This document shows, piece after piece, positions 1,155 to 21,692 of a stretch of DNA of 21,692 nt; position 1 is the stretch's first letter; each line of letters opens with the position of its first letter. The DNA is taken from the IMG/VR virus record IMGVR_UViG_2541047885_000001, one strand, 5' to 3'. The notes beneath the pieces are model-generated. The model saw only the letters and a list, made by a program, of their open reading frames with translations, did not search any database and was not told the DNA's origin. The translations under genes were made by a program, and so were the position numbers. Source of the stretch: a virus (taxonomy: Duplodnaviria > Heunggongvirae > Uroviricota > Caudoviricetes).

Positions 1155-1188
1155 GCACATCCCTGTGCCGCCGTTCTGTCAGAAGAAC
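1155..1188. repeat. Right arm of the 34-bp inverted repeat; overlaps the last codons and stop of ant
   Basis: Exact reverse complement of 1..34; the ant stop codon (1179..1181) lies inside the arm. Confidence 0.85.
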
Positions 1189-2123
1189 CCTGCTTTGTCG
1201 TTGATATACTCCGCGTGCGTCTGGATATCACGCAGGCATTTGCTCACACCGACGATGTAGCAGAACATGGTGGTCAGCTCCGCCGCCGCGCCCGATACAT
1301 CGTGCCCGTCGTCCTGCAACTGGTTTAGCAGATTCATCAGCAGTGAGTTCTCCGTCAGGCCGAGAACACCAGACGGAGAATGAATCAGGCTGCGGTAGCC
1401 GGGCTTCAGCGGATAACCATAACATTTTGTCTGTGTTTTAATTGCCTCACGAAGCGCATCTAACATCTTGACTGCCACTTCATCATTCTCTGATGCAGAT
1501 CCAGCAGGGAGATGCTCCCCTTCAAGCGGAACCCGAGCAACAAGAGACAACGCTTCGGCGAATTGATCTTCATCAATTTCTTTGTACGAACAGCCAAAAT
1601 GAGATTTCAGTGACGACCACATGGTGATCATCGCCTTAGCCTGTTTTTCTTTTGGCAGAGACTGACCGCGACTCATGACGAGTTGTTTAATGGCTTCCTG
1701 CTGTTCAGTGGTTATTTTACCCGGCAACGCCTTTTTAGCTTTGCGTGGGTTAACCACATGGCCTTTAGTCCAGTACTCGTAGAGCACATCGTCACACTCT
1801 TCCTGATACTGGATTACCTTGTCGCGGATTTCAGGACGGACTTTGTTAGGGCTGATGGTTTGCAACCAGCCAGCAAGTTTGCGAAGTGCCAAACAAATAA
1901 TCTCACGGCGCTGTTCATCCCCAGGAAGCTGCATTGTGATTTTCACAATGCAGGTTTTAAACCGCTGCTTCATTTTCGTAAACTGTGAAGCCCAATCCAT
2001 ACCCATGCCTTCAACGATAGGTTTCATTGGGGTGTACGGTTCTCCGTTGTGATTGACAACATAAAGTTCTGCGCCGTGGAATGGCACGTTGATAGTAGAT
2101 ACCGCTGTTGCTATACTCGTCAT
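1179..2123 (-). CDS. ant: Phage antirepressor (Ant-like), 314 aa
   Basis: Sits downstream of an Arc-like gene and divergent from an Mnt-like gene, as in P22 immI. N-terminal region looks like antirepressor N-domains; size close to P22 Ant (300 aa). Confidence 0.75.
   Translation of the reverse strand: MTSIATAVSTINVPFHGAELYVVNHNGEPYTPMKPIVEGMGMDWASQFTKMKQRFKTCIVKITMQLPGDEQRREIICLALRKLAGWLQTISPNKVRPEIRDKVIQYQEECDDVLYEYWTKGHVVNPRKAKKALPGKITTEQQEAIKQLVMSRGQSLPKEKQAKAMITMWSSLKSHFGCSYKEIDEDQFAEALSLVARVPLEGEHLPAGSASENDEVAVKMLDALREAIKTQTKCYGYPLKPGYRSLIHSPSGVLGLTENSLLMNLLNQLQDDGHDVSGAAAELTTMFCYIVGVSKCLRDIQTHAEYINDKAGFF
2089..2117 (+). promoter_or_regulatory. Sigma70-like promoter antisense to the ant 5' end (candidate Psar)
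   Basis: TTGATA (2089..2094), 17-bp spacer, TATACT (2112..2117); predicted start near 2124, opposite the ant start codon (2121..2123). Confidence 0.45.
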
Positions 2124-2197
2124 GTCGTTAATTCCTATACGTAGTTTTACGATACTGAAGCCCTGACGGTCTGGCCACCGTTGGGCTTCGCTGTTTT
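2124..2197 (+). ncRNA. Candidate sar-like antisense RNA (~70-75 nt) covering the ant start codon and RBS
   Basis: Runs from the antisense promoter to a plus-strand hairpin (GAAGCCC 2157..2163 paired with GGGCTTC 2183..2189, inner ACGGT/ACCGT stem) followed by a T-rich stretch. Complementary to the ant SD (2133..2136) and ATG. Architecture parallels P22 sar. Confidence 0.4.
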
Positions 2198-3580: not shown

Positions 3581-6500
3581 TCACCGCATCACCGGATCCA
3601 CCTGGTTTATTAGTGGCGCAATCCAGAACAGGTTATTGCCTGGTATCAGGGTTCGGGCATTATGCACAATACGATCACCGGCATCACCATTCAACACTCC
3701 TGCGGTCACATCAATGATGCTATCCGCAAGACCAAATGACGGTCCGAATAGAGATCCTACGAATCCACGACTGGCATACCTAGACTGTGTGCCAGTGCCA
3801 AATAAAGCCCCCAGCCCAACAGCACCACCAGTAGCCTTTTCAGCCATGTTGTTATATTCCATCAATGGTCCAAGAATACCGGATCTATCTATACCCTCAA
3901 GCACCAGTTTCTCTGGTGACCAGTCAACATTTTTCCCTTTCGATGCTTCTTTAAGCGCATAGACCAGTGAGCCAAGAGCAATCTGAAATGCAGTGCCATA
4001 ATAAAATTGCGCAGTTCCTTCCTGTAACCCACCAAGTAGCGCACGGTTGTATGAAGCCGTTGTGAATGATTTAAACTGAAATATCGTTCGCCCCATTGGA
4101 GTACTCGCCCATAAAGGTGTGTCACCAATACCGGGGGTGATGATAGTGTTATTAACGTCTTTCAGAACCGCTGACTGGAATACTCCGGCAACGTACTGAT
4201 CATCCCATTTATCAAAGTTACCAATGTGCCATCCATCAATTACCTCGCCATGTTTCCCGAACTCACTGCGAATACGTGCAGCCATATTGTCGTTGATACC
4301 GAGTTTTGCCAGGCGGCGTGCAGGAAATGCACCGGACAAAATACCGTCTGAAATAACCATTCCGTTCATGGATTTGTTTATGTCATTAAAGCGATCCATG
4401 AGTGTCAGCTTGCCGAAGGCATCAGTAATTCGCTCCATTCCGGCTTCGACTGCTGTTGTCCTGGAAGAGCTGTCAACAAGATCACCAATTGCACGAGAGC
4501 GTGAATGCAGTACAGTTTCCAGTCCGATACCCATCTTCAACATCTCTTCTTTGCTGGCCTTAAATGCCGGTGATTGGGATATCTGAGAAGCATAGCCTTT
4601 CATGGTGTTACGGAAACCATTAACCATAACCCCTCTGGCCAGATCTGGAATAGCTGATACTGTCATTCCACCGAGTTTGGTCGTGAAGTTCACATCCCGC
4701 AGAAAAGCGCCAGCACGAACAAAAAACGAAGACGGATCATCAGGCATCCCATATGTACCAACAAGACGATCGCGTAATGCTGTTATGTCTCTGAGATCAT
4801 TTGCTCTTGATTTTGAAAGTCTGGACTGTTCTTTCCGTAATTCCTTTTCGTACTTTCGCATTAATGAATCGAGTTTACCCTGAGGAACAACTTCACCATT
4901 GCTCTCATAACGTGCTTTCAGATTTGCCACACTTTCGTCATATTTCGCCTTTATTTTTTCAGGCACTTCCCGTAACAGACTGTCATATTCGTCCTCAATT
5001 AATTGCAGACGCTCAGTCATAGTTCGTTTGCCAAATGTTCTCGTCAACTCAATTTCTGCTGCCGCTTCACGGATATGACGTTGCAGCACGTAATTCACAT
5101 CACTTTCAAGATAATCCCTGATAAGACTATCAGGAACATTTAATGTTCTTTCTTTCGTACTACCTGCGGCTTTTACAGAAAATACGCTGACAAAATCCTG
5201 TGGAACCTTAGCACCAGTAATTTTATTAATTACGATATCTGCTGCAATTTCAGCATCCTCAGGAACCAGTGTTTTATTTCCTCTCGACCACCAGTCAACC
5301 AAAATACGTCGAAATTTATCGCGTTCACTGATTATTTTTCCAACTTTATATATGCGTGGGAAATAGCTTGCCTGGCCTAATGCTTTCAGTTCTTCATCTG
5401 GCGGCAATAAACCAAGCTTTTGCATTTCAACTTTCACCCGATTTAATACAGTTCGCATCGCCTGCGCCGTTTCCTGAACAACAGGATTAGCATGCACATC
5501 ACCGCTTCGCATAGCATTCCCAACCTGCTGACGAAATGAATCAAAACTCATGTCACCACCATCAGCTTTATACTTTGCGTATGCCTGTTTATTTCCGACA
5601 ACAACAGCAGCTTCTTCACGCTGCCATCCACGTGTACGGGTTTCTACAGCTACCGGTGTTTCAATCCCCCTTTCATTTCCTTTAAGGGTGAAATTATTTT
5701 CGGCTAACTCCAGCGTTGTTTTTCGCACTGTCCTGGACGGAGACTCCATTAACCTTGTCAAAGGAGTAAGATAGCTCCCTGCTTTCCATGCAGCCTTTCC
5801 AACCACCCCACCAGAAACAGGGGTTAAATCATCCAGAGTCGCTGTATCAATTTTCATAGCACCAACACTACCACCATCGGAAAGCGAAGCGGCAGCCCTG
5901 TCAGTCACTGATGTAATGCTCATATTATCAAGAGCATCAGCAACCTCACGTGTGGCTGCAGCCCGGACGGATGGCGAAAGCGCAACACCAGCACTGGCAA
6001 ACACGCCGCTCATCATCGCCCCCGCTGCAACGTGAGCGGCACTTTCACCCCATGAGCGTGTTATTTGCTGATTATTCAGTACAACCTCGCTTAATGCTGT
6101 ACCGGCAGCACCAATCGCAATCTGTGAGCCAATACGCGCCAGTGCCCCTCCTTGAGCACCGGGAATAAACATTGACGCAACAGTAACCGGATCCATTCCC
6201 GCAGCAATACTGGCAAGGGTTCCAACTACGCCAGCATCAGACAATAAACGTCTGTCTTCATTTTCATCATCTATCTGCTGCTTAATCCACGCCGTTTCCT
6301 CTGGTGATCGGGAATCTGCAAATTTCGCCCCCCAGTATTCATAACCGTGCAACTCATTTTTATCAGCATATGGGTTATAACCCTCGACCGGTTCAAACTG
6401 TCTGGCTGGGCGGAAAAAACCAGACAGAATATTGTTCTGTCGCATTGCAGCCCCCCATACGGAAGGCTCAGGTGGCAATGGCTCAGGATTAGCCCCTTCC

Positions 6501-12813: not shown

Positions 12814-13418
12814 CAGGACAACCTCGCAATGGTAAACTCGTCAACCGGTGGCAGTGGTTCCTGTGATTCATTCTGGCTATGCGAGCCAGCACTAAGAATC
12901 ACGCGATTGTACATATTGAGGGCAAACGTACCGAGGTCTGCATTCCCAGTCAGCGCCATGTTAATAGCTGCCGCAAGACGCCAGGCCAACGCCTCCATAA
13001 AAATGGCATCAAACATGTTCACATCTGTAACGCGAGATACATACTTGAGCCATGCCTGCGGCTGGTCTGTGTAGATCAACTTTCCTGTTCCGTTGGTGTC
13101 TGCACCAACTTCGTACTGAACGCGCATTGCTGCTGTTGGATTGCGTACACCAGGAAGCATAATTTCAGTAATGCGCAGACAATCGGACGGGTACTGGTAC
13201 GCATATTCCCAGTCAGGCGGTGGATTGCTCGTATCTGCAAGCGCCACGCGTTTGGTAGCAAAGTTCCAGTCAAAATCAGAAAGCACAGCATCACGGCAGG
13301 CCTCAAAGTGCAGCGAACATTCCCCCGCTTCCTTGCTGGCTTCCGTCAGGCTGTTAATACTGCGGCTGTTGCCAATATTGGACAGCGCACGATTGCAGAT
13401 CTCTACTACAGAGGCCAT
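12813..13418 (-). CDS. Tail tubular protein A-like (adaptor), 201 aa
   Basis: Size matches T7 gp11 (196 aa); N-terminus (VVEICNRALSNIGNSRSINSLTE) resembles the gp11 N-terminus as I recall it. Confidence 0.7.
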   Translation of the reverse strand: MASVVEICNRALSNIGNSRSINSLTEASKEAGECSLHFEACRDAVLSDFDWNFATKRVALADTSNPPPDWEYAYQYPSDCLRITEIMLPGVRNPTAAMRVQYEVGADTNGTGKLIYTDQPQAWLKYVSRVTDVNMFDAIFMEALAWRLAAAINMALTGNADLGTFALNMYNRVILSAGSHSQNESQEPLPPVDEFTIARLS

Positions 13419-18202: not shown

Positions 18203-18222
18203 ATCAATGACTCCGTACGCAA

Positions 18223-18300
18223 TTAAATTATTACCAATTTAACCACACATGATTTATTTATCGTAGGTAGTTGACATTTAACGCACAAATTATTACCTTT
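18223..18300. promoter_or_regulatory. AT-rich promoter-like region at the edge of the terL-portal insertion
   Basis: Plus strand: TTGACA (18271..18276), 17 bp, TACCTT. Minus strand: TTGTGC, 17 bp, TACGAT. Confidence 0.3.
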
Positions 18301-19011
18301 CAGGTAACCAAAGAGTTCATTCCGGTTACTAACCTGACTGGCTTGTCGTTAAATTGAACAGGTGGAGTGAGCTTTTATTTTGAGCAGTACGGCGTATGGC
18401 ACATGCGCCGATAGCGGTCTGGATACGTTTAAGGGGCACCCTCCCTTGCTCGGGCAAACGAACCAGGTAGCCGGAATGTGCAAGTCGAGCGGTTTTATTC
18501 CGCGCACGGGGATTCACCATCCCGGCGATCAGGTGTGACACCTCGGAAGAGACGAGGATGCAACAGGTAAGAGCATTGAGATTGATCGTCGTTCCTGGGC
18601 CCAAGGTCTGCTCGAAGTCAGTGCTCTTTCCGTTGTGGTGAATGCGCAGGCTGATGCGCACCCCGTGAACGTGGGGGAATGGGTAAGGCATAAGCCTGAG
18701 TTGGAAGACAAGCTGCGTGAATAGCCGGAAGTCAGGGTTACCCAACAAACTCAGTGAAAATCATGACGCATATCCTCTTGAGAGAGTGGCAGCTAACACT
18801 GAGCATATTTCAAGCCGGAGATCAGCACCGGCCACCACAACCCAATCACGTTAGGACCGTGATACGGCAGTACCAGGCAATGCGTGTAGCTTTGGCGGTG
18901 GCAGTTCTCCTTCTTCTGACCACCGCCCTTTTTACAGCAGAACGCCATTCCGATGACGTTGCGCTGTAAACCCTGCATCACCCGCCAAGGAAGGCACTCC
19001 GTTGATCATTC
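18300..19011 (+). ncRNA. ORF-poor ~700-nt region; candidate structured RNA or long regulatory leader (function unknown)
   Basis: No convincing ORF on either strand despite ~55% GC; bounded by a consensus -35 upstream and an intrinsic terminator placed 12 nt before the next RBS. Several GC-rich hairpins visible. Confidence 0.2.
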
Positions 19012-19036
19012 GCCCGGTTCGTCCGGGCATTTTTTT
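19012..19036 (+). terminator. Intrinsic terminator or attenuator immediately upstream of the 110-aa gene
   Basis: GCCCGG-TTCGT-CCGGGC hairpin followed by a T7 tract, then AAGGTGA RBS and the ATG at 19049. Confidence 0.6.
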
Positions 19037-19048
19037 AAGGTGAAAATC

Positions 19049-19381
19049 ATGAAAGAGAAGACTGCAGCTGAGCGCTATGCCGCAGCTATCAATGCCGCGA
19101 TGGCGATTGTAAACCTGCGTGAAGAGATTAAAGATCTCCTTGCAATTATCCATAACAACCTGACATGTACAGAGTTGCTTGGCGGTCAGTACAACGGTGA
19201 GGCGGTGAAGGAGGCATTTAAAAATGCCGAGGTAGGAATAATTCCAGCAAACTATGTCAAGGCTGAATGTGTGCTCCTAAAGGCACGAGTGAGTCTGCAT
19301 GAAGATCCTGGTAATCTCGGTCGAACTGCAATGCGTTACGTGATAGACGAGTCGAATGCCAAACACAATCTACCGAAATAA
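19049..19381 (+). CDS. Hypothetical protein (110 aa), cargo gene inserted between terL and portal on the opposite strand
   Basis: ATG at 19049 with AAGGTGA 5 nt upstream; in ORF-track frame 18953..19381; followed by the palindrome and a terminator. Confidence 0.7.
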   Translation: MKEKTAAERYAAAINAAMAIVNLREEIKDLLAIIHNNLTCTELLGGQYNGEAVKEAFKNAEVGIIPANYVKAECVLLKARVSLHEDPGNLGRTAMRYVIDESNAKHNLPK

Positions 19382-19385
19382 CACC

Positions 19386-19397
19386 GTGACATGTCAC
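19386..19397. repeat. 12-bp perfect palindrome GTGACATGTCAC, copy 2 (preceded by CACCGTG)
   Basis: Identical to 1129..1140; lies 5 nt after the stop of the 110-aa gene and just before a terminator hairpin. Confidence 0.8.
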
Positions 19398-19401
19398 AAA
19401 C

Positions 19402-19428
19402 AGCCAGCCTATGAGCTGGCTTTGTTTT
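19402..19428 (+). terminator. Terminator hairpin between the converging 110-aa gene and terL
   Basis: AGCCAGC-CTATGA-GCTGGCT stem-loop followed by TTGTTTT. Confidence 0.5.
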
Positions 19429-19471
19429 ATCCTCACCAGAGGATATCAACGATATTATCCCCACCAGCGGA

Positions 19472-20947
19472 TTAAGCATAGGGATCGTAATCTGTGATGG
19501 CCTTGCCTTGCTGGTTCTGCTGACCGGGAATTCGCAGACGCTTCGACACAGGGAACGCAAACGTCAGCAGTAGCGCATCGCCTTTACCCGGCGAACGCCC
19601 AAGCCGCTCCTTGATATCCTCCTTCGGTTCGATAACGATTTTACCGTCCACGCGAACTTTGTACTCTGCCGCCGACAGGTCGTCTGCAGTTTCCTGGTCA
19701 TCCAGCATGCCGCCCAGCCTCAGCCATGTCTTACATGAGTTGAACATCTCCCCACGCTTGTTAAGCATCTGCGGGTCAGTAGACGCGCCACCGAACGGAA
19801 CAAGTTGCCATGTACGACCCCAGCCGTCACCGATTGACTTCAAACCGGTTCCGTAACCGAAGTCGATGAACACCGCGTCAGCCTGATACTGGTCTTCAAA
19901 GTCAGCGATACGCTTCGCCATAATCAGATCGTCGGTAGTCTTGTTGCCAGTCCACAGCACCTTACTGTGTAGCCCCTGCCGCAGGTATATCACAGCGTCA
20001 TCAACGCCGGAGTATGCCGGGTCAACGCCGATTATCACCGGAGCATGTGCAACCTGCGCAGCGGTTACCACCAGTTTCATTGCCTCGTCAGTAAGACCGG
20101 TAGGGATAAACTGCAATTCAGATGCATCAGGGAATATGCCACGCACACGGATTTTAACGAAGTCGCTATCTTCCCCGTAGTCATCAACCCATTTCTGCAA
20201 CTGCTGTTTGTTGGTGCCTTCCACCGTCCTGCTGTCAATCTGCGCAGTTTTCCAGCGGTGTTTGTATTTGCGGAAACATTCACGGAAACGCCCGGTGTTA
20301 CGTGTAGGGTTTCCGAAAGCCACCCAGATAATCTCAGTGTCTTCGTCCGTTAGCGCACCCTCGGCAACTTCCCACACCAGATCCGCAATGTTCGACGCTT
20401 CATCAAATACCACGATGATGCGTTTACGCTCGTTGTGTAGTCCGGCGAATGCCTCAGTGTTGTGCTCAGACCAGGGGATTGCGTCAGCTCGCCACCGCTT
20501 GTCGTGCCCAGGGTCATTGCTGTACATCGCGGTAGCGGTACAGGTAAACCAGTCTTTCGTGATAGCAAGGTTTGACCACTTGATAATTTCCGGCCAGGTC
20601 TTCGTTCGTAGCTGGTTGTCGGTGTTGGCGGTCACCACGACCTTACAATCCTCGCAAGTGGACATGCCCCAGTTGATCAGCATTGAGATGAATGCGGATT
20701 TACCAATACCGTGACCAGAAGCACGTGCCAGCATAAGCGGCTGATATCGCGTCTCTGGATTCTGCAGGTGATCACGTATCTCTCGGAACGCATCAGCCTG
20801 CCACTGACGTGGGCCGGTGGCATGTGCCAGTTCAGTCCCCTCTTCCCCCCATGGGAACGCATAGAGGGCATAGCCAAGCGGATCGTGAGTGAACCCTGCA
20901 ATATCCTCGATTAACTGCTCTTCAGGAGATAACGCTGTATCTGTCAC
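19472..20947 (-). CDS. Terminase large subunit (491 aa)
   Basis: Walker A-like ARASGHGIGKS, Walker B-like IIVVFDEAS, and a C-terminal nuclease-like region (IIGVDPAYSG); ATGA overlap with the terS stop. Confidence 0.92.
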   Translation of the reverse strand: MTDTALSPEEQLIEDIAGFTHDPLGYALYAFPWGEEGTELAHATGPRQWQADAFREIRDHLQNPETRYQPLMLARASGHGIGKSAFISMLINWGMSTCEDCKVVVTANTDNQLRTKTWPEIIKWSNLAITKDWFTCTATAMYSNDPGHDKRWRADAIPWSEHNTEAFAGLHNERKRIIVVFDEASNIADLVWEVAEGALTDEDTEIIWVAFGNPTRNTGRFRECFRKYKHRWKTAQIDSRTVEGTNKQQLQKWVDDYGEDSDFVKIRVRGIFPDASELQFIPTGLTDEAMKLVVTAAQVAHAPVIIGVDPAYSGVDDAVIYLRQGLHSKVLWTGNKTTDDLIMAKRIADFEDQYQADAVFIDFGYGTGLKSIGDGWGRTWQLVPFGGASTDPQMLNKRGEMFNSCKTWLRLGGMLDDQETADDLSAAEYKVRVDGKIVIEPKEDIKERLGRSPGKGDALLLTFAFPVSKRLRIPGQQNQQGKAITDYDPYA

Positions 20948-21543
20948 TGATTGCCATCCTGACGTTCTTTCAGTCTCTTCCTGGCTGCCGCTATGCGATC
21001 AGCAATTGTCACATTCACATTAACATCCAGGCGTTCTTTGAATGCGTTGACGTCGACGTGCTTACCAATCAGTTCGAGGTTCTTCACCTTGTCAGGCCAT
21101 TTAATTTTTTTGAGGATGCCAACCAGCTCTTTCTCGTCTCCACGGCCTTCGAACATGTCGGCCAGTTCGAAACCTGTCAGGTACTGCCGCCAGACCTTAG
21201 GCCATTCCGAGACCGGCTTGATGCTCATATCGTCGTTGAGAATGTCAATCACGTCCATCTGGTCGATCTCCACCAGGCGCATGAGAACGTAATCAGCACT
21301 GACGCGCATTCGTTTGTTGCGCTCCTCCATCAACTCGGCAATCCGTTTCTGAATGCGTTCATCGCGCATCATGACACTGGCTTTAACTGCCGCTGTATTT
21401 GGGGAGAATCCTGCATTAATCGCAGCCTGAGTCTGGTTTTCAGGCGTTTTGATGTATGACTGGCAATAAGCCTCCTGCATTGCTGTTAGTGGCTTAAATT
21501 GCGTTGATTTGCGTTTATAGGTTTTAGGTTCAGCAGGCATCAT
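20944..21543 (-). CDS. Terminase small subunit (~199 aa from the ATG at 21543/21540; the ORF track extends to TTG 21588)
   Basis: Immediately upstream of and coupled to terL; N-terminal region has a terminase small subunit-like pattern (LTAMQEAYCQSYIKTPENQTQAAINAGFSP). GGTGG lies 5 nt before the second ATG. Confidence 0.8.
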   Translation of the reverse strand: MMPAEPKTYKRKSTQFKPLTAMQEAYCQSYIKTPENQTQAAINAGFSPNTAAVKASVMMRDERIQKRIAELMEERNKRMRVSADYVLMRLVEIDQMDVIDILNDDMSIKPVSEWPKVWRQYLTGFELADMFEGRGDEKELVGILKKIKWPDKVKNLELIGKHVDVNAFKERLDVNVNVTIADRIAAARKRLKERQDGNQ

Positions 21544-21550
21544 AACCACC

Positions 21551-21579
21551 GTGGTAATAGTTACCGTTGTGGTAATAGT
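21551..21579. repeat. Direct repeat GTGGTAATAGT x2 (7-bp spacer) in the terS 5' leader
   Basis: 11-mer at 21551..21561 and 21569..21579, between the upstream terminator and the probable terS start. Confidence 0.5.
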
Positions 21580-21584
21580 ACCAT

Positions 21585-21612
21585 GCAAAATAAAGCCGCC
21601 ATAGTTGGCGGC
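21585..21612 (-). terminator. Intrinsic terminator upstream of terS
   Basis: GCCGCCA-TAGT-TGGCGGC hairpin; on the minus strand it is followed by TTTATTTT. Confidence 0.5.
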
Positions 21613-21616
21613 AGTA

Positions 21617-21692
21617 TGAACCGCCCCGGGAATCCTGGAGACTAAACTTCCTGAGAAAGAGGTAAACAGGATGACTAAAAATACTCGTTTTT
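21617..21692 (+). mobile_element. Left end of an IS3-family insertion sequence (IS629-like), truncated by the window edge
   Basis: TGAACCGCCCCGGGAATCCTGGAG... matches my recollection of the IS629 left terminus; an orfA start (MTKNTRF) follows with RBS AGAGGT. Confidence 0.7.
21671..21692 (+). CDS. IS3-family transposase OrfA, first 7 codons only
   Basis: ATG at 21671; MTKNTRF matches the IS629-type OrfA N-terminus from memory. Confidence 0.65.

Follow-up and report, generated by a model that had tools for sequence, protein, structure and literature searches.

IS629 between the early-right and late operons of an Escherichia coli Uetakevirus prophage: tandem putative repressor operators and a candidate late promoter lie on the terS side of the insertion

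RESULTS

The late-gene region of an epsilon15/phiV10-like prophage

The DNA analyzed here (the window) is the whole 21,692-nucleotide stretch of IMG/VR record IMGVR_UViG_2541047885_000001. It belongs to a temperate podophage of the epsilon15/phiV10 type (genus Uetakevirus) of E. coli: the terS region is 92% identical to phiV10 and TL-2011b and 85% identical to epsilon15, and the window matches TL-2011b, which was deposited as a complete phage genome, at 97.6% identity over 94% of the window length. All of the long genes in the right half of the window are on the minus strand. The late operon begins with terS, the ATG of which lies at 21540 and opens an N terminus (MPAEP) that is conserved among relatives; leftwards of terS follow terL (19472-20947) and then the portal, protease, major capsid, and tail genes. 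Read upstream from the terS ATG on the minus strand, the order of features is a Shine-Dalgarno sequence (GGTGG), two copies of ACTATTACCAC, the tract TTTATTTT, a hairpin, 4 nt, and non-phage sequence from 21617 (Table 1). Several records annotate terS from 75 to 150 nt upstream of the conserved MPAEP start (phiV10 RefSeq, 41-715; locus L002, 5845-6522; the source scaffold L005, 5256-6004). These upstream starts cross the operators and the terminator hairpin and were probably mis-called.

Table 1. Features of the terS leader and the adjoining insertion (positions in the window)
Feature	Position	Strand	Description
terS	20944..21540	-	198 aa, first gene of the late operon; Pfam Terminase_2 (E = 2e-29); PHROG 51
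Operator O2 (putative)	21543..21557		TTACC-ACGGT-GGTTA, 1 mismatch; 18 bp from O1
11-bp repeat, copy 1	21551..21561	+	O2 left half-site plus flank
Operator O1 (putative)	21561..21575		TTACC-ACAAC-GGTAA, exact match to the palindromic repressor site
11-bp repeat, copy 2	21569..21579	+	O1 left half-site plus most of the -10 hexamer
Candidate extended -10 element	21575..21583	-	TGG-TACTAT, no -35; predicted start near 21568
Predicted intrinsic terminator, end of the early-right operon	21587..21612	-	stem GCCGCCA/TGGCGGC, loop ACTA, then TTTATTTT
Target-site duplication copy, 3 bp	21614..21616		GTA on the plus strand, TAC in the terS sense
IS629 left end (IRL, nt 1-76)	21617..21692	+	76/76 identity to LC567828.1; ends at the contig and window end

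Next, the integrity of the late genes was assessed by comparison with TL-2011b. Of the 25 TL-2011b proteins in the late region, 22 were matched full length in the window; 21 of these matches were gap-free and at least 94% identical, and the remaining one, terS, was 88% identical with one gap. The TL-2011b proteins without a full-length match were products of variable genes, including the homologue of epsilon15 gp10 and phiV10 p13 (annotated as a capsid protein), whose 324-bp gene is cleanly missing from the window at 13418/13426 relative to TL-2011b. At least 15 complete E. coli genomes share the gp10-less arrangement at 100% identity, and about 98 records match it at 99% or more; the absence of this gene was considered as a sign of decay and rejected, the arrangement being a natural variant. 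Because TL-2011b proteins are matched full length and the gp10-less arrangement recurs in E. coli, the late region shows no sign of decay at the level of sequence.

Elsewhere in the window, a P22-type immI-like module was recognized at 1179-2192. A 314-aa ORF (1179-2123, minus strand) carries a P22 antirepressor N-terminal domain (E = 1e-44), and its start adjoins a match to the Rfam sar RNA (2125-2192, plus strand; 45.2 bits against a gathering score of 43). Relatives carry a tRNA-Arg in the spacer between terL and the portal gene; no tRNA was found in the window.

A single copy of IS629 lies 76 bp upstream of terS

IS629 belongs to the IS3 family and is abundant in EHEC O157 and Shigella. 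A preliminary description of this DNA had placed the end of an IS3-family element at 21617, about 75 bp upstream of terS, and both statements were borne out: all 76 nucleotides from 21617 onward are identical to the left end of the IS629 copy in LC567828.1 (1310 bp, annotated "IS3 family IS629"), and the gap between the element and the terS ATG is 76 bp. The window ends at a contig break inside IS629. Its source scaffold, KE701653.1 (L005; GCA_000460275.1), is identical, over 8221 nt beyond an 805-N gap, to the reverse complement of the window; the gap takes the place of the IS629 interior, so that only the ends of the element were read. Across the gap, the right end (IRR) was found with 95/95 identity to the reference (scaffold positions 4356-4450), adjoining phage sequence ending in TTTTGAATAC. 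The terminal inverted repeats begin with TGAACCGCCCCGGG and give the element TG...CA ends. The trinucleotide TAC stands beside both ends in the scaffold (4353-4355 and 5332-5334), where IS-free relatives have a single TAC; the IS629 of LC567828.1 is also listed with a 3-bp duplication. In its ends, its inverted repeats, and its duplication, the element thus resembles the reference with no detectable difference, its interior being unassembled.

The proposed comparison with IS-free relatives gave a precise breakpoint. All relatives align up to 21616/21617, homology stops exactly there, and the two phage flanks, when joined, reproduce the uninterrupted sequence of the relatives exactly. Because both IS629 ends are present and the TAC is duplicated here and single in IS-free relatives, the comparison identifies the event, almost certainly, as a simple insertion of a single IS629 copy. 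The unassembled interior, together with a window that stops 76 nt into a multicopy repeat, raises the alternative that the junction is an assembly or scaffolding artefact in which a contig end was joined to an unrelated IS copy. This is extremely improbable: both flanks meet IS629 ends at the same duplicated TAC and together rebuild the sequence of the relatives, and the same junction occurs in a separately assembled Logan contig (SRR958575), which may stem from the same strain or read set.

The insertion occupies a spacer of about 120 bp between the last gene of the early-right operon and terS. In the terS sense, IS629 enters 45 bp past the stop codon of that gene and 4 nt ahead of the terminator hairpin. 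The element is inverted relative to the phage genes, with IRL facing terS; the orfA ATG lies at 21671 on the plus strand and orfA reads rightwards, away from terS, with only seven of its codons inside the window. A promoter scan found no outward promoter from IS629 toward terS.

To determine how widespread the insertion is, genome collections were searched for the junction. No record among 5,426 complete E. coli genomes spanned it (megablast), the exact junction had no match in a contig scan of one genome per species, the insertion was missing from all 80 IMG/VR viral loci, and IS629 was present at this site in 0 of 89 related loci. A text search of the literature with the IS end sequence likewise gave no match. 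This is a known IS at a new, strain-specific site, an ordinary finding. That no other sampled genome has it is consistent with a recent insertion and also with a deleterious one.

The gene and DNA upstream of the insertion

Extension of the sequence beyond IS629 revealed a 112-aa gene homologous to phiV10 p55 and epsilon15 gp49. This gene closes the rightward early operon and comes after nin-like and replication genes; lysis genes, raised as a possibility for this position, were not what the scaffold contained. A p55 homologue lies upstream of terS in 79 of 80 loci. The protein had no Pfam match and no sequence match in the PDB, and its sole NCBIfam hit was sub-threshold, to the unrelated family "LexA regulated protein" (E = 0.05). 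It belongs to PHROG 536, which is labelled "transcriptional regulator" only, and all of its 720 homologues are annotated as hypothetical. An AlphaFold2 model was of low confidence (mean pLDDT, 67.5; pTM, 0.41), and a Foldseek search of the PDB with this fold returned nothing below E = 2.5. The C terminus of p55 is Cys-rich, and the N terminus is possibly a ribbon-helix-helix.

Two elements in the DNA around the end of this gene were considered as potential control sites. The first, seen in IS-free relatives directly upstream of the position that IS629 took, is a promoter-like site, GTGACA-18-CATGAT (9/12). The second is GTGACATGTCAC, a perfect palindrome of 12 bp that overlaps the stop of the gp49/p55-like gene (L005, 4304-4315; L002, 6555-6566) and is conserved in E. 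coli, Citrobacter, Klebsiella, and Pseudescherichia. These elements bear on a reading in which the late promoter, or the start of Q-like antitermination, lies upstream of the IS near p55, read-through of the hairpin is normal, and the insertion is polar and the prophage defective. An untranslated antisense IS of 1.3 kb is expected to be polar if late transcription comes from upstream. The gene order resembles that of lambda Q-pR'-tR', where a small regulator gene likewise closes the rightward early operon, ahead of a terminator and the late genes, and the near-constant position of p55, the conservation of GTGACATGTCAC across genera, and the lack of the insertion in every other genome sampled would all suit such an arrangement. 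Unlike in lambda, however, there is no Q homologue, and the promoter-like element and operators come after the terminator and not before it. The GTGACA-18-CATGAT site is also at chance level (1 found, 0.9 expected), and p55 lacks any Pfam, NCBIfam, PDB, or fold match to Q or to an antiterminator. Where an extra gene separates p55 from terS, GTGACATGTCAC stays with p55, 300 to 470 bp away, and the operator/-10 module stays with terS. We consider an upstream start for late transcription unlikely. A specific form of it, in which p55 would act at GTGACATGTCAC and the weak promoter as a new type of switch, unrelated to Q, that carries late transcription through the hairpin, with IS629 sitting between switch and terminator and locking the prophage, is improbable.

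The spacer also varies naturally among relatives. In L079 and L083 (and also in L080, L093, and L096), an extra gene of about 110 aa is located between p55 and terS; in the L079 and L083 type, TTGAC(T) and a LexA-box-like sequence, TACTGTTTAAAT(A/G)TACAGTA, stand ahead of it. No terminator was found between the extra gene and the terS operator module in these loci. The product of the L079 and L083 extra gene has no Pfam family, and a UmuD-like reading of it was not supported. L081 (IMG/VR 3300007747_000006) has a deletion that takes out the 3' end of p55 together with the entire spacer and joins GGCATGAA straight to TACTGCCGCC at the hairpin; the fusion falls on the very TAC that served as the IS629 target.

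A predicted terminator and tandem repressor operators precede terS

The preliminary description had also reported a terminator hairpin and a pair of 11-bp direct repeats between the IS and terS, and both were located there. The hairpin (21612-21595) has a 7-bp stem with six G-C pairs and is followed by the TTTATTTT tract (21594-21587), giving the G+C-rich stem and U-tract of a predicted intrinsic terminator. A terminator scan of the region returned three terminator-like sites, against 0.6 expected. The hairpin is present in 84 of 89 relatives, in which A-U to G-U and G-C to G-U changes preserve the pairing, and the homologous hairpins are labelled as putative rho-independent terminators in the phiV10 and epsilon15 records.

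The 11-bp repeat, GTGGTAATAGT, occurs in exactly two copies, at 21551-21561 and 21569-21579; allowing up to one mismatch, three or more matches were obtained in 0 of 100 shuffles. Distant leaders retain ATTACC-N5-GGTAAT and not the 11-mer, and a comparison of leaders strongly supported the view that each repeat copy contains the left half-site of one of two 15-bp palindromes, TTACC-N5-GGTAA, arranged in tandem (putative operators O1 and O2). The half-sites of O1 are invariant and its 5-nt spacer is variable across 12 lineages, as expected of a palindrome that binds protein. O2 overlaps the terS Shine-Dalgarno sequence (21550-21546); it is kept as ATTAC(T/C)-N5-GGTAA in most of the other enterobacterial genera sampled and is degenerate in Kluyvera, L079, and L080. 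The structure of the leader RNA (z = -3.5) is accounted for by the palindromic operators.

To place these sites in a wider context, whole sequences were scanned for TTACC-N5-GGTAA. The phiV10 genome has 8 exact sites (0.05 expected in shuffles) and 14 with no more than one mismatch (1.2 expected in shuffles), and the window has 3 and 4, respectively (0.015 and 0.73 expected in shuffles). All phiV10 sites are intergenic with respect to the annotated genes, and several directly follow annotated terminators. One pair of sites (31953 and 32015) falls in PL and another (32727 and 32775) in the interval separating the repressor gene p40 from the cro-like p41, and the family extends to the integrase and replication-gene leaders. 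These counts strongly support an operator family with about 14 intergenic members in each phage genome, among them those at PL and PR on either side of the repressor gene. Seven such palindromes are annotated in the epsilon15 RefSeq record as protein_bind, "repressor, lysogeny." One of these annotated sites (12-27) lies directly ahead of terS (at 47) and is homologous to O1; a repressor site ahead of terS is therefore already in the public epsilon15 annotation. The epsilon15 counterpart of O2 is present with one mismatch and is unannotated.

The phiV10 p40 repressor is homologous over its full length to SPC32H Rep (PDB 5D50; E = 4e-42), which according to a later summary binds palindromic sites as a tetramer (PMC9638917). 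From their match to this family, the repeats are very probably operators for a Rep-type repressor. The sites ahead of the present terS and the Rep operators of epsilon15 and SPC32H share the same half-sites, the same location just upstream of terS, and the same dispersed family; they differ in that the O1 and O2 flanks are alike in the E. coli lineage, giving the exact 11-bp repeat, and in that the right half of O2 is degenerate (GGTTA). The likeness to Rep is drawn from phiV10 p40 and SPC32H, the immunity region of this prophage lying outside both the window and scaffold L005. Thus, of the earlier proposal that the repeats bind a late activator or the terminase itself, protein binding was upheld as very probable, and the nature of the protein was not: the repeats match a dispersed palindrome annotated as the epsilon15 repressor site.

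The terminase part of that proposal is a rival in its own right, namely that the tandem repeats serve, alone or in addition, as the pac site that the small terminase subunit recognizes in headful packaging. In some pac phages, the small-terminase gene has repeated boxes around its start, and the pac of SPP1 has repeats near gene 1. Here, the repeats stand immediately upstream of terS, TerS falls in Pfam Terminase_2, and epsilon15-type records are opened at this point. The same palindrome, however, recurs at about 14 intergenic sites that include PL and PR, which points to a transcription regulator and not to a unique packaging site; moreover, the half-sites are conserved across genera and the direct-repeat flanks are not. 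A pac function for the repeats accordingly appears quite improbable.

A candidate promoter overlaps the first operator

We then examined the sequence between the terminator and terS for promoter elements. A generic scan that required a -35 element found none in the terS leader. A candidate extended -10 element was recognized directly 5' of O1, the last three bases of the -10 hexamer being the TAT of TATTACC. The composite motif TGn-TAnnnT-TACC-N5-(A/G)GTAA is present in 89 of 89 relatives from at least nine genera; because the operator consensus includes the final AT of the -10, conservation of these two bases does not count as separate evidence. Variation in the -10 element is confined to position -13 (G/T/A) and positions -10/-9, yielding TGG, TGT, or TGA and TACTAT, TAGTAT, TATTAT, or TACAAT, and these variable positions are those unimportant to an extended -10 promoter. 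At phiV10 PL, the same overlap of -10 and operator occurs (AATTAT immediately followed by TACC), with a perfect TTGACA 17 bp before it and no TGn. PL, with a -35 and no TGn, and terS, with TGn and no -35, would thus represent complementary solutions, as expected for real promoters.

The natural variants with an extra gene between p55 and terS (L079, L080, L083, L093, and L096) helped to delimit the conserved region. These loci lack the hairpin and have unrelated sequence upstream; all that they retain of the leader is the block from about -15 to the ATG. Since this block is retained despite a different upstream gene, the conserved cis information lies downstream of the hairpin. Without a promoter just ahead of terS, it would be difficult to account for operators that overlap a -10 element there, which argues further against a late promoter upstream of the IS. 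On balance, the conserved motif points to an autonomous terS-proximal promoter, and hence to little effect of the IS, as a reading that we moderately favor.

Control by Rep repression only would make such a promoter fire early and not late, so an unrecognized activator may be needed. Being always adjacent, p55 is a candidate for this activator, and its cis site could lie upstream of the IS. A paper on vB_EcoP_ZX5 lists predicted promoters only and has nothing on the terS leader.

Two other exact operators were seen in the window. One, TTACC-TCAAG-GGTAA at 77-91, is preceded by TACTAT, giving the same -10/operator overlap as at terS, and lies upstream of 59-aa and 181-aa ORFs on the plus strand (152-851); the 181-aa ORF has a weak Pfam match to the YafO toxin (E = 1e-5, just above the cut-off). 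The other (18293-18307) is oriented on the plus strand, opposite to the late genes, and has TTGACA and, 17 bp further on, TACCTT. It is situated between terL and the portal cluster (region 18203-19471) and points at a 142-aa ORF (18953-19381), for which no Pfam family was found.

DISCUSSION

Our results suggest a working model for the terS leader and for the consequences of the insertion, which we judge to be probable as a whole, with moderate confidence. In this model, O1 would overlap a -35-less extended -10 promoter (TGgTACTAT), the late operon would start at this promoter of its own, downstream of the terminator, and Rep would directly hold the terS promoter off in the lysogen. The module from about -48 to the ATG would be untouched by IS629, which would displace only the DNA upstream of about -48. 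IS629 most likely does not disconnect the late genes, and a polar insertion is less likely than an autonomous promoter.

Two statements of the preliminary description would therefore need revision. It had proposed that the IS separates the late genes from their promoter; a conserved extended -10 with repressor operators lies downstream of the IS. As an alternative, it had the late genes driven by transcription coming out of the IS. With the transposase gene pointing away from terS, no promoter detected that faces outward, and an intact terminator 4 nt past IRL, such transcription into the late genes is unlikely. The probable effects of the insertion under the working model would be as follows: (i) it would block any read-through from the early-right operon; (ii) it would displace the DNA upstream of about -48, as described above; and (iii) it would add 1.3 kb to a genome packaged by the headful mechanism.

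The distribution of the putative Rep operators recalls other temperate phages. Dispersed-operator immunity is exemplified by the C1 operators of P1 and the stoperators of mycobacteriophage L5. As in P1 and L5, one repressor would serve numerous sites in both early and late transcription units, frequently located in short gaps between genes, immediately past terminators. The putative Rep operators differ from the sites of P1 and L5 in being symmetric palindromes that overlap -10 elements. To our knowledge, the repressor proteins here are unrelated to P1 C1 or L5 gp71.

The insertion itself documents one strain-specific IS629 event in a Uetakevirus prophage and has little import beyond annotation, apart from correcting a plausible but probably wrong inference that it silences the late genes. 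The leader on its terS side carries tandem putative operators set on a -35-less extended -10 element, and this element is invariant across at least nine enterobacterial genera, which suggests that the repressor directly controls the genes for packaging and morphogenesis. In the lysogen that carries IS629, the late operon would be naturally insulated from upstream transcription, so that this strain may serve as a test of late-operon autonomy in Uetakevirus.
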